Positions 13,381 through 31,912 of a DNA stretch of 53,978 nt are shown here, in pieces. The stretch comes from a virus (lineage: Duplodnaviria; Caudoviricetes), in IMG/VR virus record IMGVR_UViG_3300009609_000027, positions 1 to 53,978 of that record; one strand, given 5' to 3'. The first letter of the stretch is position 1. Each line of letters opens with the position of its first letter. Under the pieces are notes generated by a model that did no database searches, was not told the origin of the DNA, and worked only from the letters and a program-made list of their open reading frames with translations. A program made the position numbers and the translations under genes.

Positions 13381-13841
13381 GCGACATGCGCCTATGGCGC
13401 CAGGTGACCAAGTTCGACACCGCAGCCTGCGCGCTCGCTGACCGACACTACTCGAGGCGCAAGCCTGGATCGGGACAGTTCATGCCGCCCGGCCAGACGG
13501 TCGTGTTGCTGTCACTCGACGGGACTGCCGTCTTCGGTTGGTGGCGCCCCCATCCGGACAGTGGCATCAAGTCAATGAACGGCCTGGACGGTTGGACCTG
13601 CACGATCTTTCGCAACGAGGGGGCGCAGTTGTCCAGCGTGTTGATCCTCGACGCCGAGCACGCCCTGGACGTCCACAGCATCGGGCCGGACGGGATGCTC
13701 ACCTACGTGTGGGATGCGAAGGTGCGCTCAGTCAATCCCGGCGCGTGCTTCAAGGCCGCAGGCTGGCGACGCATCGGTCGCAGTGCGGACAACCGCAAGA
13801 CGCTGCCACAGAAGATGTCGACCCGGCAGGTGGCGACATGA
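13377..13841 (+). CDS. Conserved-looking phage protein, possible GNAT/Mom-like fold
   Basis: ADRHYSR, FRNEG and TYVW...NPGACFKAAGW..IG, the last resembling the C-terminal motif of Mom/GNAT proteins; ATGA overlaps both neighbours. Confidence 0.45.
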   Translation: MSDMRLWRQVTKFDTAACALADRHYSRRKPGSGQFMPPGQTVVLLSLDGTAVFGWWRPHPDSGIKSMNGLDGWTCTIFRNEGAQLSSVLILDAEHALDVHSIGPDGMLTYVWDAKVRSVNPGACFKAAGWRRIGRSADNRKTLPQKMSTRQVAT

Positions 13842-15463
13842 GGGGCGCGCCAGCATGGCTGACCGACCTGCTGCGCCCCAAGGCCGTCGAGGCCACCCGC
13901 TCGCTCTACGCCGAGTACGTCGGGCGAGATGGGCACGCCTACGCCCTGGCCGCGGTGCGTGGCGAGCTGGCGCACATGTCGGCCGCGGTGCCCGGCACGC
14001 GCAACCAGGCCGCCTACCGCGTCGCCGCCCGCCTCATCGAGTTGTGCCTGGCCGACTGGTCGCACCTGGACTACGCCGAAGTGCAGAGCGCCTATCTGGG
14101 CGCCTGCGAGCTGGCCAACACCGACGGGGAGTTTCTCGACGGCGAAGCCTGGGGGGTCTGGTTCAGCGCAGAGCGACGCATCCGCGACCCGGCCACCCTG
14201 CCCGCGCCGGAGCATCTGGGCACCGTCATGCCCTGGATCGACGTGGCCGGCGCAGGTGGTGTGTCGGATTTTGATCAGGCCGCGGTGCCGGCAGCACAAC
14301 GCGTCGCGGCCATGCTCACGGCCGACCCGTACGAGCGCGACGTCGCCTTCGAGATGCACCGGCTGCGCGTACGCCAGGAAGCGACGCGACGCCTGGCTAC
14401 GCTCAGTGAGCGCCTGACCGATTTTGACCAGGAAGTGCTCGACGACGAAGGTCTCGCCGCACTGCCCAGGCCGGACGCGCTGGTCGACGGCTACCTGGAC
14501 CGCGACTCGCTGGCGCGCGTCAACGGGCCGAGCGGGCACGGCAAGAGCTTCGTGACGCTGGACCTTGCGGCCTGCGTCGCATCGGGGCGCAACTGGCATG
14601 GGCGCGCCGTCACGCAGGCCGCGGTGCTCTATCTCGCCGCTGAGGGCGTGCAGGACATGGGGGACCGGGCGGCGGCCTGGGCGCAGCGTCACGATGTCGA
14701 CTCGACCGGCGTGGTCTTCCTGCCGCGGGCCGTCCAGGTCGGGGGGGCGGAGTGGCCGGCGCTGTGCGCATGGGTGGCCCGACGTGGCTTCGGGTTGATC
14801 GTCGTCGACACCCAGGCCAGGGCCACGGTCGGCGTGAAGGAGAACGACGCCACCGAGATGGGCGAGATCGTGGCCGGCCTAGACCTGCTGCGTGGCGCGA
14901 CCGGGGCGTGCGTGCTGCTCGTGCATCATCGTGGGCTGACTGGAGAGCACGGGCGTGGCTCGACCGCCATCAAGGGCGCCATGGATGCCGAGCTCGACGT
15001 CTCCAGATCGGGGGCGACGATCACGGTCAAGACGACCAAACAGAAGCGCCGGGCGGAGGCGTTACCGATGCTGCTGACCATGCAGCCACTCGGAGCGTCG
15101 ATCGTGTTGGTCGGCGAGCGCGACCAGGTCGACGACAGCAGCCCGTTCACCTCCCCGGTCATGACGTTGAGCCTGCGCGACAAGTGCGCCATCGCCATCG
15201 CGCACGCGCTCATCGACGCCAAGGGCTCCGGACTGACCCGGAGTGAGGCTCAGGCACATGCCAGAGTCGCGCTCGATCTCGCGTCCAATGAGTCGAATAA
15301 GCGCGTGGTCCGCCGGGCGTGGGCCGACCTGGTGGGGATCGGTCGCATCGCCCGTGCGCAAGGGCGCGAAGCGTACTTCTTCCTCGAGATGGATGGATTG
15401 CCTATCTTGTCGGTGAATCCTGACAAGGTCGTAGAAGGTGGTCCAGAGTTGTATATGCCCTGA
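13838..15463 (+). CDS. RecA-like AAA helicase (AAA_25/RepA type) with primase C-terminal region
   Basis: Start ATG 13838; GTRN helical domain; Walker A GPSGHGKS; YLAAEG; Walker B IVVDT; LVHH...RGSTA. Confidence 0.88.
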   Translation: MRGAPAWLTDLLRPKAVEATRSLYAEYVGRDGHAYALAAVRGELAHMSAAVPGTRNQAAYRVAARLIELCLADWSHLDYAEVQSAYLGACELANTDGEFLDGEAWGVWFSAERRIRDPATLPAPEHLGTVMPWIDVAGAGGVSDFDQAAVPAAQRVAAMLTADPYERDVAFEMHRLRVRQEATRRLATLSERLTDFDQEVLDDEGLAALPRPDALVDGYLDRDSLARVNGPSGHGKSFVTLDLAACVASGRNWHGRAVTQAAVLYLAAEGVQDMGDRAAAWAQRHDVDSTGVVFLPRAVQVGGAEWPALCAWVARRGFGLIVVDTQARATVGVKENDATEMGEIVAGLDLLRGATGACVLLVHHRGLTGEHGRGSTAIKGAMDAELDVSRSGATITVKTTKQKRRAEALPMLLTMQPLGASIVLVGERDQVDDSSPFTSPVMTLSLRDKCAIAIAHALIDAKGSGLTRSEAQAHARVALDLASNESNKRVVRRAWADLVGIGRIARAQGREAYFFLEMDGLPILSVNPDKVVEGGPELYMP

Positions 15464-16207: not shown

Positions 16208-16384
16208 ATGAAGCGCGCGAAGATCGAGAATCCAGACCTGGAGCTGGCCCGCCGACGTCTCGCCCAGGCGCGTGGCCGGTGCGCCGACGAGCGATGGGTC
16301 TGGGGAACCGCGACGCGTCTGAGCGCCGCACGCCTCGACGACGCCCTGCGACGCGTGGCGTACCTGGAAGGCCGCGGCGCGTGA
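16208..16384 (+). CDS. Small hypothetical protein (58 aa)
   Basis: MKRAKIENPD...EGRGA read manually; GTGA overlap with the helicase start. Confidence 0.6.
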   Translation: MKRAKIENPDLELARRRLAQARGRCADERWVWGTATRLSAARLDDALRRVAYLEGRGA

Positions 16385-19143
16385 GCCAACTGCTCAGCCT
16401 TCGGCCCTACCAGCGCGACGCCGTCGACGCCGTACGCGCAGCTCTGGCGCGCGGCATGCGGCGCCCGGCGGTCGATATGGCGACCGGGCTGGGTAAGACC
16501 GTCGTCTTCGCCCACCTCGGCACGGAGTGGCTGGCTGACAACCCTGGTCGACGCGTGCTCGTCCTGGCGCACACCGGCGAGCTGCTCGACCAGGCGATGG
16601 ACAAATGGCGCTCGGTCGCGCCGGGGCTGCGCCTGGGGCGCGTGCAGGCTGATGCCAACGAAACGCTGGCCAGGGTGGTCGTGGCCAGCGTGCAGACGTT
16701 GCGCAACGAGCGGCGCCGGCGGATGCTGCGCGACGTTGGATTAATCATCGTCGACGAGTGCTTCCCCGCAGGGACGATGATCGGCGATCAGCGCATCGAG
16801 GACCTGCGCCCAGGCGACCTGGTGCCGTCCTACGACGAAGAGACCGGCGAGCGCGTGGCGCGTCCCGTCGTCGCGACGATGAACCGCAGGCCCGGATCGT
16901 TGGTGCGCGTACGCCTAGCGTCGGGCGAGGAGTTTTGCTGTACGGCGAATCATCCGGTCATGACGCCCGGAGGGTGGTGTATGGCCGGGCTATTGCGTGG
17001 TGAGTCGGTGCTATCGTTTACTCATGACACAACAGATGATATGTACGCAGTGCGGCGTGGCGCTTACGCCGACGGCGATCCAGGTACAGAACTGGAAGAA
17101 GTCGGGGCGGGTGTATTGCGGGTCCGAGTGCGTCCGCGCGATGCGCAAGGCCAAGGGTGTCGCGGAACGTCAGAGGCCACAGGTCGAATGCGTAGAGTGC
17201 GGGATCGCGTTCGTGCTGGAGAACCGAGGTCGGATCTCGACCTGGAAGCGTTCGGGTCGGACGTTTTGCTCGGAGACCTGCAAGGCGGCGGTCATCGGTC
17301 GGGAGTCGTCGGAGCGCATGGCGCAGACGAATCGTCTCCACGCCTCTGCGCGTATGAAGGCGAAGAATCCGATGCACGACGAGGCGACGCGAGCCAAGAT
17401 GGCGGCGACTCTGAAAGAGATCCATCACGCTCCGCGCGTTCGCGGTGGCAATGGAGCGCCCATGCCGGAACCGCACAGGCGCATGGCGGAGATGCTGGGC
17501 TGGCCGGTCGAGGTGTCGATAGCGCCGGGCGATGGTCAGCGGCCGTATCACTACAAGGCGGACATCGCCCATCCTTCGATGATGGTGGTCGTAGAGATCG
17601 ATGGGGGGTCGCATTATTCGCTGGCGCGCCGAGAATCGGATCGTCGTCGCGACGCGCGGCTCGCTGGGATCGGGTGGTTGACGTTCAGGTTCTCCAACCG
17701 GGACGCGATGGAACGTACGGCGGAGTGTGTCGCGACGGTCTTGTCTACAACATCGAAGTGGCAGCCACGCACACGTACCTGATCGGATCGGGGATTGTGG
17801 CGCATAACTGTCATCACGCCGTGGCTGCCACGTACCAGGACATCCTGACGCATTTCGGGGCGTTGGGTGAGCAGCGCGACGACAGCGCGGTCGCCGCCGG
17901 CTTCACCGCCACGATGATGCGCGGCGACGACCTGGCGCTCGGCCAGGTCTGGCAGGACGTCGTCTACTCGCATGGCATCGTCGAGGGCATCGCCGACGGT
18001 CACCTCGTGCGCCCCCGCGGCATCCACGTGCACGTCGACGACCTGGATCTAGGCAAGGTGCGCGTCGAGCGTGGCGACTGGAGGGCCGGCGATCTGGGCG
18101 AGGCGCTGGAGTCCTCGCTCGCGCCTACCGCCATCGCCAAGGCCGTCACTGAGCATGCCGACGAGCGGCGCATCATCGGATTCGCACCCACGGTCTCGTC
18201 CGCAACGGTCATCGCGGACGCCCTGAGAGAGTCTGGGCGCGCTGCGGGCCTCGTCCATGGGGGAATGGGCAAAACGGAGCGCAAGGCCGTCCTGAGCGAT
18301 TTCAGCCCCGGTGGCGGCCTGCAGATCCTGATGAACTGCTCACTGCTGACCGAGGGCTATGACGAGCCGGCCGCGGACTGTGCGCTGATCGCTCGGCCCA
18401 CCCGCTCGCCGGTGCTCTACCGCCAGATCGCCGGGCGGGTGTTGCGCCCCTATCCGGGCAAGGTCGACGCGCTGCTGCTCGACGTGGTCGGCGTCACCGC
18501 CAACCATTCGCTGATCTCCGGCGTCGACCTGTTCGGCGACAAGCTCGAGCGCGAGGTCAAAGAGAAGACCGAGCGCGACGAGCTGGAGCTCGAAGACGCC
18601 GACGATCTGGCCGACGGCCAGCAGGCCGCGCGACGCGCGTTGGAGTGGTCCGGGCCGCTGGCCTCGACCGAAATTGATCTGTTCGCGTCCTCGCCGATGC
18701 AGTGGCTGCGCACCCGCGCCGGCGTGTTCTTCCTCGCGGCCGGCGAGCGGTACCTGGCCATCGTGCCCGCGGCGCCACAGTCGCAGGACCAGTGGATGGC
18801 GCACTTCGGCGGCGCGCCGATCTTCCTCGGTTACGACGTGATGGCGATGGACAAGAGCGGCGGCGGGCTGGGTCGTGCGATCGTGTCGGGCGTCGCCGAC
18901 CTGTCCTACGCGATGGCGTGGGCTGAGGGCGACGTCAGCGCGGGCGAGAAGATGACGGCGACGAAAGAGCGTGCCTGGCGCGCCAGGCCGCCGACCGAGA
19001 AGATGAGCGCCTTCGCGGCACGTCTGGGCTTGACGCCCGCGCCGCACGCGCGCATGGGCGAGGTGTCCAACATGATCACGTTGACGTTGGCGTCGCGTCG
19101 TATCGATCCACACATTCCGGCATACATGAGGGGGAGATCGTGA
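16381..19143 (+). CDS. SF2 DExH helicase containing an intein
   Basis: LRPYQ, ATGLGKT, IIVDE/CHH (DECH after splicing), FTAT, LTEGYD, QIAGRVLR; start GTG 16381; 570 aa after splicing. Confidence 0.92.
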   Translation: MSQLLSLRPYQRDAVDAVRAALARGMRRPAVDMATGLGKTVVFAHLGTEWLADNPGRRVLVLAHTGELLDQAMDKWRSVAPGLRLGRVQADANETLARVVVASVQTLRNERRRRMLRDVGLIIVDECFPAGTMIGDQRIEDLRPGDLVPSYDEETGERVARPVVATMNRRPGSLVRVRLASGEEFCCTANHPVMTPGGWCMAGLLRGESVLSFTHDTTDDMYAVRRGAYADGDPGTELEEVGAGVLRVRVRPRDAQGQGCRGTSEATGRMRRVRDRVRAGEPRSDLDLEAFGSDVLLGDLQGGGHRSGVVGAHGADESSPRLCAYEGEESDARRGDASQDGGDSERDPSRSARSRWQWSAHAGTAQAHGGDAGLAGRGVDSAGRWSAAVSLQGGHRPSFDDGGRRDRWGVALFAGAPRIGSSSRRAARWDRVVDVQVLQPGRDGTYGGVCRDGLVYNIEVAATHTYLIGSGIVAHNCHHAVAATYQDILTHFGALGEQRDDSAVAAGFTATMMRGDDLALGQVWQDVVYSHGIVEGIADGHLVRPRGIHVHVDDLDLGKVRVERGDWRAGDLGEALESSLAPTAIAKAVTEHADERRIIGFAPTVSSATVIADALRESGRAAGLVHGGMGKTERKAVLSDFSPGGGLQILMNCSLLTEGYDEPAADCALIARPTRSPVLYRQIAGRVLRPYPGKVDALLLDVVGVTANHSLISGVDLFGDKLEREVKEKTERDELELEDADDLADGQQAARRALEWSGPLASTEIDLFASSPMQWLRTRAGVFFLAAGERYLAIVPAAPQSQDQWMAHFGGAPIFLGYDVMAMDKSGGGLGRAIVSGVADLSYAMAWAEGDVSAGEKMTATKERAWRARPPTEKMSAFAARLGLTPAPHARMGEVSNMITLTLASRRIDPHIPAYMRGRS
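16759..17808 (+). mobile_element. Intein (350 aa) in helicase motif II, with no in-frame endonuclease
   Basis: CFPAGTMI...IEDLRPGDLV; block B CTANHP; block F/G VYNIEVAATHTYL...VAHN with +1 Cys; the central ~210 aa look like off-frame sequence. Confidence 0.92.
17024..17782 (+). CDS. Vsr/DUF559-like endonuclease with Zn-finger and NUMOD3-like repeats, nested in the +1 frame of the intein
   Basis: Two CxxC...CxxxC units, NPMH...RAKMA, YKADIA...VVEIDGGSH...DRRRDARL...GW..FRFSN; codons are GC3-rich in this frame; TGCTATCGT-N6-ATG upstream. Confidence 0.85.
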   Translation: MTQQMICTQCGVALTPTAIQVQNWKKSGRVYCGSECVRAMRKAKGVAERQRPQVECVECGIAFVLENRGRISTWKRSGRTFCSETCKAAVIGRESSERMAQTNRLHASARMKAKNPMHDEATRAKMAATLKEIHHAPRVRGGNGAPMPEPHRRMAEMLGWPVEVSIAPGDGQRPYHYKADIAHPSMMVVVEIDGGSHYSLARRESDRRRDARLAGIGWLTFRFSNRDAMERTAECVATVLSTTSKWQPRTRT

Positions 19144-19352
19144 AGATTCCGCGTTGGGTTCATCGCGTTTGGGCGCGCGTGTTCGGCTATTTCTGGATGC
19201 CGTGCTCTGAGTGCGGCGAGATGTACGGCGGCCACGAGTGGAAGGTCGGCGCGGCCGTTCACGAAGAGACCGGCCTGGGCGTTTGTCCGAGATGTGATCC
19301 GATCGTGCACGCTCGCAACATGGCTGAGATCCGTCGTCGGCTCGGGCAATGA
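19140..19352 (+). CDS. Hypothetical Zn-ribbon protein
   Basis: CSEC and CPRC; coupled overlaps. Confidence 0.6.
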   Translation: MKIPRWVHRVWARVFGYFWMPCSECGEMYGGHEWKVGAAVHEETGLGVCPRCDPIVHARNMAEIRRRLGQ

Positions 19353-19801
19353 GCGAAGGTCTGGCCGGCATCGAGGTGCTCGACTTCTGGGTGCCGGGCC
19401 ACCCCAGGACCAAGGGCTCGCTGACGGCACGCGCCCGTAAATGTCTTTGCTGCGACAAATGCACGGGCTATGTCGGCAAGATGCAACTCGTCGACACCGA
19501 GGCGTCGAAGCGTTGGCGCAAGCTCGTCGCGTACCAGGCCGAGCAGGCGATCGCGCAGTCGTTGTACTCGTTCCCGATCGTCGATCGCGTCGGCCTCGAC
19601 CTGGGCTTTGCGCTCGACATTGACGATGTGATCAAGGATGGCGCTGGCGACACCGACAAGCTGTACCGCAACGTCCTCGACGCGCTGACCGATGCCGGCG
19701 TCTATCGCGACGACGTGCAGGTCGTGAGACTGACCGGCTACAAGATCGAGGCTGAGGTCTTCGACCAGGGGTATGGCGTGCGCGTGCGGGTGTCGGTGTA
19801 G
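19349..19801 (+). CDS. rusA: RusA-like Holliday junction resolvase
   Basis: VPGHPRTKGS...DTDKLYRNVLDALT...YRDDVQVV. Confidence 0.85.
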   Translation: MSEGLAGIEVLDFWVPGHPRTKGSLTARARKCLCCDKCTGYVGKMQLVDTEASKRWRKLVAYQAEQAIAQSLYSFPIVDRVGLDLGFALDIDDVIKDGAGDTDKLYRNVLDALTDAGVYRDDVQVVRLTGYKIEAEVFDQGYGVRVRVSV

Positions 19802-21258: not shown

Positions 21259-21388
21259 GGGTCTTGCGGATGGTCTGGGATGTGCTGCTCTACGTCTTCG
21301 TCGATCGACTCTCCCCGTCGCGTCGGTACGTGCGTTATGGGCGCGGAGCGATGGCGGCGTTCCGTCGTGGATTCGACGAGGTTGTGCG

Positions 21389-21619
21389 ATGACGATCACC
21401 GCTGCGGGCGGCTGGTGCGCGCCGTCTACGACTCTTCCCGTGGACGTCACTCAGGAACTGCTCGACGAGGTGATGCTCGGACCGGTGCGCCCCGAGCAGT
21501 GGCCAACGGGCCTGACGTCGGACGATCTGGACTGGATAGCGCACATGCTGCATGCCGGCGAGATCGATCCGCGCTATCCGTTCGCGATCCGGCGTGGCGG
21601 GATTCGGTGGGAGTTCTAA
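21389..21619 (+). CDS. Hypothetical protein
   Basis: GAGG SD; AAGGWCAP motif, also present in the major capsid protein. Confidence 0.5.
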   Translation: MTITAAGGWCAPSTTLPVDVTQELLDEVMLGPVRPEQWPTGLTSDDLDWIAHMLHAGEIDPRYPFAIRRGGIRWEF

Positions 21620-23121
21620 CCAGCGTTGCCGACATGATCGACCCTGATTCTCGGCCCGATCGTCCCGAGATGGCCACCCCGACCACGCTCGCCGCGCACC
21701 TCGACCGCACCTATCAGGTTCGCTCGCATCTGACGCTGATCGGCGAGGAGCTCGCGGCGCTGGAGCGTGGCGACGTCTTCGACCGCCTCATGATCAACAC
21801 CCCGCCTCGTGTCGGAAAGACCCGACTTGCGGTGGAATGGTTCGTTTTCTGGTGGTTGATCAAGCATCCGACGCATCGCGTCGTCATCGCGTCCTATGAC
21901 GACTCGCTCGCCCAGCGCGCCGGCAAGCACATCCGATCACTAATCACCCATTACGGCGTGCAGTACGGGCTGATGCTCGAGCGCGGGTCGGCCGCGGCGA
22001 AGGACTTCTCGCTCGCCACCGGCGGCGGCGTGCGATCGGTGGGCATCGGGTCGGGCATCACCGGCCACGACGGCGACCTGCTCATCGTCGACGACCCGAC
22101 CAAATCGCGCGCCGAAGCGGAGAGCGTGCGTCGCCGCGACGCCATCTACGACTGGTGGTCGTCTGAACTCTCCACGCGCGTCGTGCCCGGCACCAAGATC
22201 ATCATGGTCCAGACGCCCTGGCACCCTGACGACCTGCGCGTGCGCGTCGTGCAGCAGGAGGGCCGCGTCGAGGACGGCGGACGTTGGCGCGAGGTCATCA
22301 TGGCCGCGCTGGCCGAAGGCGACGATCCGCTCGGCCGCGCGCCCGGCGAACCGCTGCCTCACCCGATGCTCGCCGAGAGCGACAAGGAACGGCTTCAGCG
22401 TTGGTGGGAGCGCATCCGCTCGTCTATCGCCGTGCGCGACTGGCGGGCGCTGTACCAGTGCGACCCCAAGGCGCCAGAGGGCGCGCTGGTCACCGAGCGT
22501 TTGTTGCGCGAGCGACGCTGTTTCATGGCTGATCGCGACGACTGCTCGACGCCTGTGCGCGTCGGCGTGGCGGTCGACCCGTCGGGCGGCGGGCGCGACA
22601 CGGCCGGCGTCATCGGCGGCTTCCTCGGTGTCGACGGTCGCGCCCACTTCACCCACGACCGTTCCGCCGTGATGGCTTCGGCGAACTGGGCGCGCGCCGC
22701 CTGCGAGCTCGCCGCGGACACCGGCGCCGACTTCATCGTCTACGAGAAGAACTACGGCGGCGACATGGTGCTGCTGGCCATCCGCACCGCCTGGGACGCG
22801 CTGCGTCGCGAGCAGCCCGATCGCTTCGGCGCGCTGGTGCCACGCCTGATCCCGGTCAGCGCCAAGGTGGGCAAGGTGCTGCGCGCTGAGCCGATCGCGC
22901 AGCAGTGGGCTGAGGGGCGCTGCGTCACGGCGGCCTACCTGCCCGACTTCGAATCAGAATGGTCAACGTACGTGGTCGGTTCGCCATCGCCGGGCCGCAT
23001 CGACGCCGGGGTGTATCTGGCGCTGGAATTGCTGCCCGTGCCGGCCAGTGGTGAGACGTCGATGGTGGGTGCGCAGCAGCTCGCGGAGACGGATCTGTTG
23101 GCTGGGCTGTGGCGACGCTGA
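21607..23121 (+). CDS. terL: Terminase large subunit
   Basis: Walker A PPRVGKT; GITGHDGDLLIVDDP; QTPWH.DD; YQ..P; nuclease VAVDPS and RID. Start GTG 21607 or ATG 21634. Confidence 0.92.
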   Translation: MGVLTSVADMIDPDSRPDRPEMATPTTLAAHLDRTYQVRSHLTLIGEELAALERGDVFDRLMINTPPRVGKTRLAVEWFVFWWLIKHPTHRVVIASYDDSLAQRAGKHIRSLITHYGVQYGLMLERGSAAAKDFSLATGGGVRSVGIGSGITGHDGDLLIVDDPTKSRAEAESVRRRDAIYDWWSSELSTRVVPGTKIIMVQTPWHPDDLRVRVVQQEGRVEDGGRWREVIMAALAEGDDPLGRAPGEPLPHPMLAESDKERLQRWWERIRSSIAVRDWRALYQCDPKAPEGALVTERLLRERRCFMADRDDCSTPVRVGVAVDPSGGGRDTAGVIGGFLGVDGRAHFTHDRSAVMASANWARAACELAADTGADFIVYEKNYGGDMVLLAIRTAWDALRREQPDRFGALVPRLIPVSAKVGKVLRAEPIAQQWAEGRCVTAAYLPDFESEWSTYVVGSPSPGRIDAGVYLALELLPVPASGETSMVGAQQLAETDLLAGLWRR

Positions 23122-27424: not shown

Positions 27425-30400
27425 GTGCAGCGCGTCACCGGCCTGACCGACGAGCAGGTACGTCAGTACGAGTTGCGCATCGAGTCCGTCATCCGCGTGC
27501 AGCTCCAGATGGTCATGGATCGCATCGCCGATCGTATCGCGGCCATTCAGACCGCCTCCGCGCTCGTCCTGGTCGCCGCCGACGTCGACGACGGCCTGCC
27601 ACCAGGGCAGCCCTACGTCTCGCCCGACGACCTGGCCTCGATCTCGCCGCTGTGGCAGGAGGCCGTCGCGCAGACGATCCTGCCCATCGCGGCTGAGGTC
27701 TTCCAGGCGGCCGGCGGCGCGGTCTACGCCCAGATGGTCGACGCCATCGGCCACGCGCTGCCCTCGGTCGGGTCGCTCGCCGCGGAGCAGTATCTGGCGC
27801 AGGCGCGCAACACCTTCGACGACATCGGTAACGACCTGTGGCAGACGGCGCGCAACGAGTTGCTCGACGGCTTCGAGCAGGGCGAGTCCATCCCGCAACT
27901 GGCCGAGCGGCTGCGCTCCAGCGCCGGCATGACGGCGAAACAGGCCACGTTGGTCGGGCGCACCAAGGTCATCGAGGCGTCCAACGCCGGCTCGATGGCG
28001 ACGGCGCGGGCGTCGATGCTCGACATGGTCAAAGAGTGGATCGCGACCATGGACCCGCGCACGCGCCCGACGCACCTCGCCGCTGACGGACAGCGCGTGC
28101 CGCTGGCTGAGAAGTTCACCGTGGGCGGCTTCCAGGCCGACTTCCCCGCCGATCCGGACCTTCCTCCATCGATGGCCTTCAATTGCAGGTGCACCGTCGG
28201 ATATCTCATCCCCGATGACCAGCCCGATTTGGTCCCGATCGACGGCGCGCCGGGCACCACGACCATCGATCGCGCCATCGCCGAGCAGGGCATCGCGCCG
28301 CCGGACGGCACGACGACGGTGGAGCGCGCGCTCGAGGTGCAGGAAGCGTTGCCGCGACTACCCGGCACTGACGTCGATCTCGGCGGCGAGTTGGTTGAAG
28401 CGTCAACTATCGTGCGCCCAGTGCTTGCGCGCGCAAAGACCGAGCGCGAGCTCCAGGCCGCGTGGCGCGCCGAGTTCCAGCGCATCGCCGGCCGCGACGT
28501 GCTCATCCAGATGCCGCCCAACGCCTCGCTCAAGACCATGTCGCAGTACGCCGAAGGCACGCTGCAGGCGTTGGAGCGTTTCCCTGAGGCGAAGATCGGC
28601 GAGATCTCGTGGTGGAGCGCGCCTGGCAAGGCGTACGCGCAGGTCACCCCCGGCGGTCGCCATGGCTCAACCCTGCAGTTCAACGCCTGGTGGGCCAGCA
28701 ACGACAACCGGGCCAAACTGCTGCGCGCCATGCGCGGCGACACGAAAGGCTGGGACGAGGGCCGCAGCGCCTGGTCGGTGCGCAATGCCACCAACCCGAC
28801 CTCGACGGCCTATCACGAGTTCGCGCACGTGCTCGACCTGGAGAACCTGGGCGGGCGCGTCGGCCCGCAGGCGCTGGCTGTCGTGCGTCGCAACGCCATC
28901 CGCGAAGGCGTCGACGAGGACGCGTTGGTCAGCCGCGACATCTCAATCTACGCAGGGTCGGACGTCAACGAGATGATCGCCGAAGCCTTCACCGACGTCA
29001 TGATCAACGGTCCGCGGGCCTCGCTGGTCTCGCGCGAGATCTACGACCTGATGGCGGTCGAGTACCGACGCGGCGGCTTCAATCTGCGCCTCGGCCCGGT
29101 CGACGCCGACGTCGACGTCTTCCCACGCCTGCCGGCGTCGCGTCTCAACTCGATGACCGTGGCGCAGTTGCGTGCGCTGGCCGGCGAGCGTGGCGTCACG
29201 ATCCCGCCCGGGGCACGCAAGGCCGACCTAGTGCGACTGCTCGACGAAGGCGACGCGGCCGTCCCGGACATCCGCGCCGTCGCCATCGAGCGCGTCAACA
29301 CCCTGATCAAAGACATCCCGGCCGGCACTCCAGGCCAGTTCCGCAACAAGGTCCGCGACGAGATGCTGCGCCAGGCCGAGATCGCACCAACCGCCGTGCG
29401 CGACCTGCTGGGCATGAAGATCGCCACCAGGGCCGAGTGGCGGGAACTGCACCACGAAGGCATGGACCCGCAGGCCATCTACGTCTTCAACCGTGGCCGC
29501 ATGTACTTCTCGCCAACCTGGGCCGAGGACAACGCAGCGGCGAGGGCGACCGCTCGGTCGGCCTTCGAGAACGACCGGGTCGCGTGGTCCTTCCCCGACT
29601 TCAACATGCGCAACCTGGACGTGACGGCAGGCATTCTGCGCCACGAGTTCGGCCACCACGTGGCCGGCAACTTCCGGTCGGACGGCTGGACCGACGCGCG
29701 ACGTCGTCGGGTGCTCGTCCCACTCGCCGAAGAGCTCAACGTCGCGGCGCCCACGACGACGGACATCAGCGCCTGGTTCGCCAGCAGTGATGTCCAGCGC
29801 GCTGTTCGTCGCCTGATCTCCCCACGCGCGGCGGACAGCCCCGACGAGATGTTCGCCGAACTGTGGGCCGTCTACTCGGGTCGAGGTGCCGAAGCGTCCG
29901 CCATCGCGCGACGCATGGGTGTCATCATCCGCGACACCTGGGAAACGCCCGCCGTTGTCGCCAAGCCTGTCGCCTCGGCCACGTCCAAGCTCACCGTCAC
30001 CGCTCTGCGCAAGCTGGCCAAAGAGCGCGGCATCGACGTGCCGGCCGGCATACGCAAGCCGGATCTGGTCAAACTCATCGACGAGTCGCCAAGCGCCAGG
30101 GCGCGCGTGCTCGATGTCGGGAACGTGCGTCAAGGCGAGGCTGCGCTGAGGTCAACGCAGAGCGTTCAGGACGCATTGCATCGGGCCGAGTTGTTGCCGC
30201 GCGCGCAGGGCGGGATTCGACCGCGCGAGATGTTCGCCCTGCAGGACACTGTCTATGATCCCGACTTCGGCTATGCGAAGAACGGCTATCGGGACATCAA
30301 CCGTGGCTTGCAATTGGCGCGGGGCGGAGATCTTCCCGCCGATATTCGTCAGCGAGTCGAAGACCTTGACCGCGTCATAGGTTTCGGATCGGTGCGCGAC

Positions 30401-31912
30401 GAGGTTGTGCTCTATCGCGGCATTGCCCGGCCTGAACTGCTGACCGGTGGGCGAGAATTGCGCCTTGGCGACGAGTTCACCGAGTATGGCTATAGCTCAA
30501 CGACCGTCAGCCTTAAGCACGCCGACGAGTTCGCCAAGGGTCGATCCACGCCTCTCGACGAGCGCACCGGGAAGCCAGAGCATCCGACGGTGGTTCGTTT
30601 CATCGCCCCCAAGGGTCAGCACGCAATCCAGGTCTCGGATCTGGATTTCCCTGGCGTCGGCGAGGTATTGCTACCGCGAGGCATGTCTTATCGCGTCGTC
30701 GCTGATCGTGGCGTCATCGATGGCGTTCATCACTATGACGTCGAGATCGTGCCGAGCGCTGCCCCGCAACTCACCCCGGCGCAGATCCAGCGTGCGGCGG
30801 CCAGGGCGCGCAACGCGCAGATCGAATCGTCGGCCGGCACAGCACGCCTGCTCGCCGAGGTCGACGAGATCATCGCCAAGGGGGCGAACAGGACTGCGTT
30901 GCGTCAGACGCTCGACGACGCGCTGATCGCCCCCGAGCAGCTCTTCGCCGGCGCCGACCCGGCCGTGCTTGACGCGCTCAAGACGGCGCTGGCCACTGGC
31001 GACATGGCGAAGCTGAAGGCGGCTGTGACGCGCCTGTCGACGAAGGCGAAGATCAAGGTCGTCGGGGGTAAGGCCGGGGCGAAGGTCAAGTTTGACGCGG
31101 ACACCATGGAGGGCGTCGGCGGCATCGACATTCCGGCCGGCGCGCAGGTGACCGTGGTCCGTCGAGGCTCAACGGTGACCATGCCTGACGGCGAAGTGGT
31201 GACGCTGGAGAAGGCACGCGTGACGCCTGTCGCGTCGGCCACGCCCGATGTCCCGACGATTCCGGGCCTGACGCGTCAGACCGGCAAGCCGGCATCGCCA
31301 TCCGTCAACGCCAAGGCGACCAATCCGAATTATGGGTCGACGCAGAATGGCGAGACCTATCGCGCAGCCGGCAAGGCTGGCGAGCGTTATACGCCGGACA
31401 TGGGGCCGCTGCCGTGGGGCGCCTACGAGGAGAACTGCAGCAACGTCGTCTACGCCTTCGAGATGCGGATGCGTGGCTACGACGTCGAGGCCGCGCCGCT
31501 CGACGTGCTCGACAAGTACGGCTACGCGGCCGGTCGCACGTACGACGAGATGGATCAACTCTTGGCGGTGGCGTGGCGCCTTCCCGGCGGCAGGCCGCAC
31601 GGGCGCTCGCTGAACGGTCAGACGTGGCGATCGTTCGCCGAGATTGACACCGAGATCGAGCAGTGGCCAGAGGGCGGCCGGGGCATGATCTTCGTCGGCA
31701 AACACATCTTCAACGTCGTTAAGGTGCGCGGCAAAGCGCAGTACACCGAGGCGCAATTCGACGCCAACGCCACCCGCAACGTGACCGCGCTCTATAAGAA
31801 GAAGTACAAGAGCGCAGGGCTATTCTCGGGGGGACTGCAAGAGGCCAAACTGGTGCGCTTGGACGACCTTGAGCCAACCGACAGGATTCTTGAGGCGGTG
31901 CAACCTAGATGA
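27425..31912 (+). CDS. MuF-like minor head protein fused to two HExxH peptidases, two HeH/Rho_N repeats, an ADP-ribosyltransferase, a GrpE-like domain and a papain-like toxin
   Basis: MuF KEW...D.RTRPTH...DGQ...NCRC; HEFAH (28814); HEFGH (29642); YRG/YSSTT/EVLL (30413/30491/30662); NC...EMRMRGYDVEA...HIFN (31433-31714). Confidence 0.85.
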   Translation: MQRVTGLTDEQVRQYELRIESVIRVQLQMVMDRIADRIAAIQTASALVLVAADVDDGLPPGQPYVSPDDLASISPLWQEAVAQTILPIAAEVFQAAGGAVYAQMVDAIGHALPSVGSLAAEQYLAQARNTFDDIGNDLWQTARNELLDGFEQGESIPQLAERLRSSAGMTAKQATLVGRTKVIEASNAGSMATARASMLDMVKEWIATMDPRTRPTHLAADGQRVPLAEKFTVGGFQADFPADPDLPPSMAFNCRCTVGYLIPDDQPDLVPIDGAPGTTTIDRAIAEQGIAPPDGTTTVERALEVQEALPRLPGTDVDLGGELVEASTIVRPVLARAKTERELQAAWRAEFQRIAGRDVLIQMPPNASLKTMSQYAEGTLQALERFPEAKIGEISWWSAPGKAYAQVTPGGRHGSTLQFNAWWASNDNRAKLLRAMRGDTKGWDEGRSAWSVRNATNPTSTAYHEFAHVLDLENLGGRVGPQALAVVRRNAIREGVDEDALVSRDISIYAGSDVNEMIAEAFTDVMINGPRASLVSREIYDLMAVEYRRGGFNLRLGPVDADVDVFPRLPASRLNSMTVAQLRALAGERGVTIPPGARKADLVRLLDEGDAAVPDIRAVAIERVNTLIKDIPAGTPGQFRNKVRDEMLRQAEIAPTAVRDLLGMKIATRAEWRELHHEGMDPQAIYVFNRGRMYFSPTWAEDNAAARATARSAFENDRVAWSFPDFNMRNLDVTAGILRHEFGHHVAGNFRSDGWTDARRRRVLVPLAEELNVAAPTTTDISAWFASSDVQRAVRRLISPRAADSPDEMFAELWAVYSGRGAEASAIARRMGVIIRDTWETPAVVAKPVASATSKLTVTALRKLAKERGIDVPAGIRKPDLVKLIDESPSARARVLDVGNVRQGEAALRSTQSVQDALHRAELLPRAQGGIRPREMFALQDTVYDPDFGYAKNGYRDINRGLQLARGGDLPADIRQRVEDLDRVIGFGSVRDEVVLYRGIARPELLTGGRELRLGDEFTEYGYSSTTVSLKHADEFAKGRSTPLDERTGKPEHPTVVRFIAPKGQHAIQVSDLDFPGVGEVLLPRGMSYRVVADRGVIDGVHHYDVEIVPSAAPQLTPAQIQRAAARARNAQIESSAGTARLLAEVDEIIAKGANRTALRQTLDDALIAPEQLFAGADPAVLDALKTALATGDMAKLKAAVTRLSTKAKIKVVGGKAGAKVKFDADTMEGVGGIDIPAGAQVTVVRRGSTVTMPDGEVVTLEKARVTPVASATPDVPTIPGLTRQTGKPASPSVNAKATNPNYGSTQNGETYRAAGKAGERYTPDMGPLPWGAYEENCSNVVYAFEMRMRGYDVEAAPLDVLDKYGYAAGRTYDEMDQLLAVAWRLPGGRPHGRSLNGQTWRSFAEIDTEIEQWPEGGRGMIFVGKHIFNVVKVRGKAQYTEAQFDANATRNVTALYKKKYKSAGLFSGGLQEAKLVRLDDLEPTDRILEAVQPR

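Follow-up and report, generated by a model that had tools for sequence, protein, structure and literature searches.

A phage helicase intein with a Vsr-like nuclease gene nested in its +1 frame

Can one stretch of phage DNA hold an intein in one reading frame and a separate nuclease gene in another, or is such a second frame a by-product of GC-rich DNA? The question is raised by a helicase gene in the IMG/VR virus record IMGVR_UViG_3300009609_000027 (Duplodnaviria; Caudoviricetes). We analyzed the whole stretch of 53,978 nucleotides (nt), here called the window. A superfamily 2 (SF2) helicase of the DExH type is interrupted by an intein of 350 amino acids (aa), and an open reading frame (ORF) for a 252-aa nuclease lies within the intein DNA in the +1 frame. 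Our reading, to which we give a probability of about 0.85, is that this DNA encodes two proteins, an unsplit intein and a separately translated +1 nuclease, presumably a homing one. The original prediction had proposed that the unsplit intein uses the off-frame reading of the nuclease gene as its linker, and the comparison with relatives lent this strong support.

Helicase and intein, frame 0:
16279-19143, plus strand: helicase precursor ORF, SF2, DExH type; 954 aa from the first GTG, true start uncertain
16279-16758, plus strand: N-extein, ending ...IIVDE, the first half of helicase motif II
16759-17808, plus strand: class-1 intein, 350 aa, CFPAGT...VAHN followed by a +1 Cys; assigned by motifs, alignment and predicted fold
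16759-17028, plus strand: Hint N-terminal lobe, intein aa 1-90, including the block B TxxH
17029-17658, plus strand: linker, intein aa 91-300, the off-frame reading of the nuclease gene, predicted to be unstructured
17659-17808, plus strand: Hint C-terminal lobe, intein aa 301-350, blocks F and G, ending HN
17809-19143, plus strand: C-extein, beginning CHH, the remainder of motif II; includes the stop codon

Nuclease, +1 frame:
17024-17782, plus strand: nuclease gene, 252 aa from the ATG at 17024, TGA at 17780-17782; entirely within the intein
17042-17131, plus strand: first CxxC...CxxxC zinc-ribbon-like module (C7, C10, C32, C36), present in some relatives only
17189-17281, plus strand: second CxxC...CxxxC module (C56, C59, C82, C86), family-wide
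17468-17752, plus strand: Vsr-like/DUF559 nuclease core, nuclease aa 149-243
17594-17641, plus strand: conserved E191, D193, H197 and D206 of the nuclease

Two reading frames through one intein

The helicase frame contained no stop along its 954 aa. The precursor matched ResIII (1.4e-21) and Helicase_C (1.1e-12) in Pfam, both assigned to the exteins, and PHROG 16 'DNA helicase' (1.2e-70). In translation, the junctions read ...IIVDE/CFPAGT...GIVAHN/CHHA.... The intein-less helicase of Nocardia phage NS-I has VLVDEAHHA uninterrupted at this position, so the insert lies within the DExH box, after its E and ahead of its H. The open frame across the intein and the two junctions were as originally predicted. 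A spliced helicase of 570 aa had also been predicted. This size depends on the start codon: removing the intein from the longest ORF leaves 160 + 444 = 604 aa, and the alignment of the NS-I helicase to the precursor begins at residue 41.

The frame-0 insert has the marks of a class-1 intein. Its first residue (C1 of CFPAGT) and its block B (CTANHP) fit this class, and its C-terminal end, ...VAHN/CHH, provides a nucleophilic +1 Cys. Among 34 aligned inteins, C1, T62, H65 and N350 were invariant, and H349 was conserved in at least 90%. The C-terminal lobes shared the pattern VYNxEV...HTY...VHN. The frame-0 intein was modeled using AlphaFold2 and an alignment with 34 relatives. The pLDDT score (for predicted local distance difference test) was 96-98 over ten-residue blocks of aa 1-80, 87 over aa 81-90 and 87-98 over aa 301-350, versus 39-61 for the linker between the lobes. 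Foldseek analysis of the model returned 24 matches at E ≤ 0.001, indicating a Hint fold. The matches included the mini-inteins of Mtu RecA (best E, 2.1e-6), DnaB and DnaX, and gp41-1.

The middle part of about 210 aa had been described as Arg/Gly-rich with AT-ending codons. It consisted of 17% G, 15% R, 13% A, 10% D and 9.5% S, and the GC content at third codon positions (GC3) in the host frame was 0.52 in the linker versus 0.86 in the exteins, in line with that description. From the model, the frame-0 product is predicted to be in effect a mini-intein, with lobes of about 90 and 50 aa joined by an unstructured linker of about 210 aa.

The +1 frame was free of stops from 16964 to 17782. Translation from the GTG at 16997 would give 261 aa, and translation from the ATG at 17024 gives 252 aa. 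A gene caller gave the 252-aa protein as well (P0001). The nuclease codons were GC3-rich, as predicted: 0.77, versus 0.81 in the terminase gene and 0.52 for the host-frame reading of the linker. The product matched Pfam DUF559 with 34.2 bits (cut-off 20.6).

We aligned 24 nuclease homologues (alignment A1) and used the alignment for a profile and for fold prediction. E191, D193, H197 and D206 were invariant in the 24 sequences and aligned with the DUF559 protein 3hrl. C56 and C59 were also invariant, and C82 and C86 were conserved in at least 90%. The AlphaFold2 model of the +1 product had a mean pLDDT of 88.6. Its top Foldseek match was the catalytic domain of I-Bth0305I (3r3p), with an E-value of 1.2e-2, a probability of 1.00 and a template modeling score of 0.62 (target). 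The next matches were 3hrl and Vsr (1cw0 and 1vsr), with probabilities of 0.90-1.00 and all with E ≥ 0.012. By sequence, the closest solved relative was 3hrl, which the A1 profile found at E 2.8e-9; 3r3p was marginal (E 0.26). Profile and model together argue for a Vsr-type nuclease fold. The search of both frames by profile and structure thus gave what had been predicted, a DUF559/Vsr-like protein in the +1 frame and Hint lobes in frame 0.

The domain order proposed for the 252-aa ORF was a zinc finger, a NUMOD3-like motif and a Vsr/DUF559 nuclease. The nuclease domain and Cys4 modules were found. The NUMOD3-like motif was not: no NUMOD match was obtained in Pfam at E ≤ 1, and the N-terminus carries the Cys4 modules instead. 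These are putative zinc ribbons, as judged from Cys spacing and weak profile matches. The missing NUMOD match makes the protein less like the I-Bth0305I type by identity; its way of working is not made less likely by this.

Nesting and frame-dependent selection in relatives

The +1 product was searched against GenBank phages with tblastn. Forty records were matched (37 Vibrio, 2 Corynebacterium and 1 Pseudomonas), and all 40 matches lay under coding sequences annotated as helicase, P-loop NTPase or hypothetical protein. Five records were opened (Corynebacterium phi673, Vibrio CP-T1, Vibrio 1.088.O, Pseudomonas MR14 and Vibrio 159E43-1b), and in all five the nuclease was in the +1 frame of the open annotated coding sequence. 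With the helicase gene as query, megablast gave no match in GenBank phages.

Scanning IMG/VR with A1 gave 188 relatives, and the best 80 loci were kept, with phi673 and CP-T1 apparently again among them. The nuclease was nested in 79 of the 80: the host frame, to which the nuclease is +1, was open over the whole match, in ORFs of 506-2168 aa, the shortest of which were cut by contig ends. The third frame did not span the match in any locus. A second IMG/VR scan, seeded with AT-rich members and a free-standing copy, gave 318 relatives, including 33 unseen loci (32 unique). Thirty of the 32 were nested in the same way, one was free-standing, and one was frame-switched. In genome contigs, a single-sequence scan confirmed no relative, but an alignment-based scan found 74 loci. 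All 12 near full-length matches among them were nested; the remaining 62 match the catalytic core alone and stand outside the nesting count. When 1.84 billion cluster representatives were searched with a profile, 614 proteins matched at E ≤ 1e-30. Nearly all of the 150 listed were 140-330 aa long, indicating that the nuclease is called as a separate small gene.

The GC content of the nested loci ranged from 0.26 to 0.70. The original prediction had cautioned that this frame relation often lacks stops in GC-rich DNA. Relatives with a GC content of 0.26-0.35 remove the worry about a chance ORF, and the stop statistics answer it as well.

For a host-frame stop to arise, a T-ending nuclease codon must be followed by one starting with AA, AG or GA. 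Synonymous codons were shuffled within each nuclease gene of 70 unique loci (the window included and L063 excluded). About 505 host-frame stops were expected, and none was observed; the third frame contained 923. For the window alone, 6.4 host-frame stops were expected, and none of 200 shuffles was stop-free. In the converse shuffle, about 213 nuclease-frame stops were expected and 2 were observed, one each in L028 and L081. T-ending codons occurred in 0 of 3690 and 0 of 1754 risky contexts, versus 21% and 28% elsewhere. Two free-standing homologues, L063 and L135, had T-ending codons in 9 of 57 and 29 of 79 risky contexts, giving 9 and 29 stops, respectively, indicating that the constraint exists only for nested genes. 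Stops in the frame-0 linkers of homologues had been named as a finding that would speak against the predicted arrangement. There were none in 100 unique nested loci.

Nucleotide differences were then assigned to codon positions. In 21 pairs with 15-35% nucleotide divergence, 50-56% of the differences fell at nuclease codon position 3, which is host position 1. In 19 pairs with 25-35% divergence, amino acid identity was 0.67 in the nuclease frame versus 0.44 in the host frame of the same DNA. Because substitutions gather at its third codon positions, the nuclease is the selected protein. Both frames are held open by selection, and only the nuclease frame is selected as a protein. Stop depletion in frame 0 and purifying selection in the +1 frame, the two tests proposed for homologues, were therefore both positive. 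In this family, the host frame runs open along all of the endonuclease gene, for which the other frame supplies a separate start. Constraint falls on the endonuclease frame and not on the host-frame reading, and the in-frame middle is predicted to be unstructured.

Spread of the element and competing explanations

The intein and the nuclease were compared with their hosts in 66 loci. Exteins had a mean pairwise identity of 0.27, compared with 0.42 for Hint lobes and 0.445 for the nuclease. The comparison differs from a phylogenetic test and takes its exteins from very divergent helicases. In many pairs the element was far closer than the hosts; for example, L068 and L080 had identities of 0.19 in the exteins, 0.56 in Hint and 0.67 in the nuclease. 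Extein and nuclease identities were nearly uncorrelated (Spearman 0.12). The intein-nuclease unit was also found in SNF2-type helicases (L053, L122, L128 and L171) and in a DinG-like helicase (L136). In these, the insertion lies two residues later (DEAH/C...HN/CYK, CFK, SYK or CGV). The element is thus carried by three SF2 helicase families at two insertion points. Its presence in three families and its higher conservation than that of the host helicases fit homing. The helicase family occurred in 1767 phage records, and the nuclease in just 40.

Several other proteins were noted. L174 and L175 end in SN/CYK and may group with the SNF2/DinG-like carriers. P0196 (799 aa) is a UvrD-like superfamily 1 helicase with an intein at aa 211-500 and an in-frame DUF559 domain at aa 391-452. 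By sequence, it appears to be a canonical in-frame Vsr-like intein endonuclease, which would mean that the off-frame position is not dictated by the fold. P0197, P0198 and P0206 (1146-1318 aa) have precomputed Pfam matches to tRNA-synt_1, an anticodon-binding domain and DUF559, and may represent a further host. Longer proteins were also searched for an in-frame version of this nuclease family; the 8000 candidates scored gave partial catalytic-core matches only, which is weak evidence that no such version exists.

We propose the following way of working. In frame 0, ribosomes would translate the whole helicase gene into a precursor of N-extein, intein and C-extein, in which the linker would act as a tether with no role of its own beyond staying stop-free. 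Splicing would link ...VDE to CHH..., and the helicase would regain its DExH box; the host frame, open in more than 110 loci, lends splicing indirect support. Translation of the +1 frame would begin internally, most likely at the ATG at 17024, and give the free 252-aa nuclease. This protein would have one or two putative zinc ribbons, a helical part and a catalytic domain of the Vsr-like/DUF559 (EDxHD) type. Presumably its targets are helicase alleles that lack the intein, in a phage infecting the same cell, and it cuts them at or close to the DExH-coding site. The intein and the nuclease would be copied together during the repair that follows. The dual coding would be kept by avoiding T-ending nuclease codons before AA, AG or GA.

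Several observations weigh against this reading. Foldseek gave nothing at E ≤ 0.001 for the nuclease model. Pfam matches of the Hint type in the window were under the curated cut-offs, and the intein is called from motifs, alignment and predicted fold. No convincing Shine-Dalgarno motif precedes the start in the window: GGTGAG ends 19 nt upstream of the ATG at 17024. Among the 70 loci, 39 had a Shine-Dalgarno-like motif, by a loose motif list with no background model, a count on which we do not rely. L028 and L081 keep an open host frame with their nuclease-frame stops, so some copies may be decaying; these two nuclease genes may be on the way to mini-inteins. The identity comparison has the limits given with it. 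Finally, we infer that both products are translated and that the intein splices, and likewise the cleavage site and homing.

The alternative that survives best, although we consider it improbable, is that the nuclease ORF has become a relic or has taken on a task for the host, such as repair or defence. It would then no longer act in homing, and the intein would be inherited vertically. Vertical-looking patterns are described for some Vsr-like intein groups in a study of actinophage inteins (bioRxiv 10.1101/2025.01.02.630785), and the stops in L028 and L081 point the same way. The strong purifying selection on the nuclease frame and its invariant putative catalytic residues speak against a relic. 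So do the pairs in which the element is far closer than the exteins, its presence in three helicase families at two insertion points, and its rarity relative to the helicase among phage records.

The start of the nuclease gene bears on a second alternative. All 70 unique loci had a start codon at a distance of 2-20 codons ahead of the first CxxC, and in 63 it was ATG. In 29 of the 70, a nuclease-frame stop was located at most 10 codons upstream of the first CxxC; in L010 it directly precedes the ATG. These upstream stops leave little room for frameshift entry from the helicase frame. A contig from another run (X2) has C>T and G>A changes at 16996-16997 that destroy the GTG at 16997, making the ATG at 17024 the likelier start. 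In a subset of loci, GAGG was located about 9 nt upstream of the start, within Asp-Glu-Val-Leu codons of the intein. At the other end, the nuclease stop was located 4-18 codons upstream of the C-terminal splice junction in nearly all loci, so the tail of the nuclease gene overlaps the conserved last strands of the intein.

Programmed ribosomal frameshifting could in principle make the nuclease without independent initiation, either by a +1 shift followed by a -1 shift or by a single +1 shift that yields a fusion of N-extein, N-terminal intein lobe (IntN) and nuclease. In its favor are the weak Shine-Dalgarno motif of the window, the 20 stop-free codons that precede the ATG at 17024 in the +1 frame, and single-frame ORFs of this fusion type (L127, P0114 and P0192). 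However, the start codon just before the first CxxC is kept in every locus, the upstream stops lie close by in 29 of them, and a double shift would leave a perfectly open host frame without need. We regard frameshifting as very improbable.

The exceptions to nesting bear on a third alternative. The free-standing homologue L063 (L063:2980-3606, 208 aa) lies among unrelated genes, with its 9 stops in the -1 frame and a DnaB-like helicase gene further downstream. The free-standing homologue L135 (L135:3001-5269, 213 aa) is directly upstream of, and slightly overlaps, an intein-less DExH helicase gene (LIIDEAHRA), and its 29 stops are also in the -1 frame. Judged by this position, the L135 copy resembles a homing endonuclease that stands alone next to the gene it probably targets. 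The frame-switched locus L127 (L127:2314-4577) has one ORF for the N-extein, N-lobe and nuclease and another, overlapping it, for the linker, C-lobe and C-extein; its linker region is still stop-free. Two of the 150 listed protein clusters, P0114 and P0192, have the same fusion of N-extein, IntN and nuclease. Such forms are rare; the three may have arisen by recent frameshifts or sequencing errors, or may be truly split. In a nuclease tree (FastTree, 106 sequences, 192 columns, rooted on P0048), free-standing and frame-switched copies fell inside the nested diversity, which is a hint only.

If frame 0 were not read through, the halves would be separate and would splice in trans, as in 'fractured genes'. 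Vsr-like nucleases between split-intein halves are known, including in gp41 helicases (PMC2677866), and L127 is a rare relative with a broken host frame. Yet without a need for read-through, host-frame stops should build up in the nested loci as they have in the free-standing copies, and the 100 nested loci have none. The host gene was broken into two ORFs neither in the window nor in its 100 unique nested relatives, in that none has a host-frame stop. We regard a split intein in practice as slightly less probable still than frameshifting. The original prediction had also suggested an intermediate on the way to split inteins. This was not supported: the nested state is the norm across more than 110 divergent loci, and selection keeps it open. 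As it is ancient and constrained, we do not read it as a stage toward split inteins; from the comparison of sequences, it looks stable and not transitional.

Contigs from three other runs, of three other studies, aligned to 16700-17900 with no gaps. X2 covers 16762-17807 with six substitutions, and X3 (three pieces) and X4 (five pieces, some aligned partly) each cover about half of 30 depth bins. The run with full cover, a possible source of the window, was excluded. None of the runs listed as containing the stretch was an RNA run. The layout is neither chance nor a sequencing artefact. That two compensating indels shifted an in-frame endonuclease, as the original prediction had allowed for, or that the ORF is spurious, has a negligible probability: although the window is a metagenomic contig with 67% GC in which long spurious ORFs are common, more than 110 independent loci share the +1 relation, among them cultured phages and AT-rich contigs, the host frame has no stop versus about 505 expected and 923 in the third frame, and the contigs of other studies are gap-free, X2 over nearly all of the intein and X3 and X4 over parts of it.

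Related systems, novelty and genome context

The caution that similar architectures might already have been reported was well placed. Gosselin, Arsenault and Gogarten describe 63 actinophage inteins with non-canonical endonucleases (bioRxiv 10.1101/2025.01.02.630785). They comprise HNH in frame, LAGLIDADG and Vsr-like types in antisense, and an endonuclease VII-like type on the sense strand in 'frame 3'. Similar to the case of the window, the inteins are contiguous, the in-frame middle is without recognizable structure, and the endonuclease ORF overlaps it; Vsr-like endonucleases, possibly EDxHD, are among them. A difference is that, in the parts of that study compared here, the Vsr-like genes are antisense and the inteins interrupt genes for DNA polymerase, minor capsid, terminase and thymidylate synthase. 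Here the hosts are SF2 helicases, the nuclease is on the sense strand in the +1 frame, the site is the DExH box, and the family extends far beyond actinophages.

The second system is the cyanobacterial dnaX intein of Phillips, DeSimone and Gogarten (bioRxiv 10.64898/2026.09.14.751524), which has an out-of-frame +2 LAGLIDADG gene and frame-dependent selection. Its authors credit Gorbalenya 1998, 'Non-canonical inteins', and suggest secondary invasion of a mini-intein. The sense-strand overlapping ORF, the disordered in-frame reading and the frame-dependent selection are shared with the window. The endonuclease type, the +2 frame and the cellular host gene differ, and stop-avoidance statistics comparable with ours were not met in the portion of that text compared.

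In the fractured genes of Dassa et al. 2009 (PMC2677866), the nuclease superfamily, the phage setting and the DNA-metabolism targets, including a helicase, are as here, and free-standing nuclease relatives exist in both (here L063 and L135). In those genes the host is split into two ORFs and the overlaps are 6-69 bp, whereas the host studied here is unbroken and overlaps the whole nuclease gene. The helicase there is gp41 (DnaB type), and here it is SF2. I-Bth0305I is the prototype of the EDxHD family defined by Taylor et al. 2011 (PMC3239194; PDB 3r3p). It has a Vsr-like catalytic fold, with an N-terminal DNA-binding part and a C-terminal nuclease, and belongs to a mobile intervening sequence in a phage DNA-metabolism gene, as does the window protein. 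However, it is encoded by a group I intron and has NUMOD and helix-turn-helix motifs, whereas the window protein has the Cys4 zinc-ribbon-like modules. The ShiLan insertion in phage DNA methylases (PMC11855218) is also open in the host frame with an out-of-frame endonuclease. It differs in its HNH nuclease and its host gene, and it was not identifiable as an intein or intron in the account given there.

The dual-frame kind of intein is already known, and this family is a new, unusually widespread member of it. Our search of the literature, with supplementary tables outside its scope, turned up no description of a Vsr-like gene on the sense strand in the +1 frame of an SF2 helicase intein. A broader claim is tentative, and we put it a little short of even chances: that this is the largest and oldest dual-coded intein lineage so far, in which one Hint and Vsr-like unit, its nuclease permanently off frame at +1, has reached motif II in three or more SF2 helicase families through homing, is carried by phages and phage-like contigs binned with many bacterial phyla, and has a stable, selected off-frame state. 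If so, one possible reason for this state is that the nuclease must act as a free protein. Alternatively, ribosomes in the helicase frame might throttle the internal start and so tie the nuclease dosage to helicase translation. The free-standing copies beside intein-less helicases and the fusions would then show escape or breakage of the unit.

The family is an unusually clean case of an intein and a homing nuclease long maintained as a pair of overlapping genes, with protein sequence under selection in one frame and freedom from stops alone in the other. The free-standing copies are a natural control. It bears on how inteins gain endonucleases and on the evolution of overlapping genes. Annotation misses the nesting: GenBank lists 'helicase' or 'hypothetical protein', and intein surveys would see degenerate or unknown middle domains. 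With cultured carriers such as phi673, a phage of the harmless host Corynebacterium glutamicum, direct tests can be made of internal initiation, splicing and homing. As a site-specific enzyme, the compact Vsr-like nuclease with its putative zinc-ribbon DNA-binding modules may also be of interest.

The window spans an entire IMG/VR virus record from a metagenome, with a CheckV completeness of 71%. The helicase gene lies in a replication module, flanked by a primase/polymerase-like gene (13538-15463) and a RusA-like resolvase gene (19349-19801). The terminase gene (21280-23121) is located downstream of this module. Further downstream, on the plus strand, a 1495-aa ORF (27425-31912) has an N-terminal head-morphogenesis/portal-associated domain by PHROG, together with PHROG matches that are endonuclease VII-like at aa 843-888 and ADP-ribosyltransferase-like at aa 970-1111.

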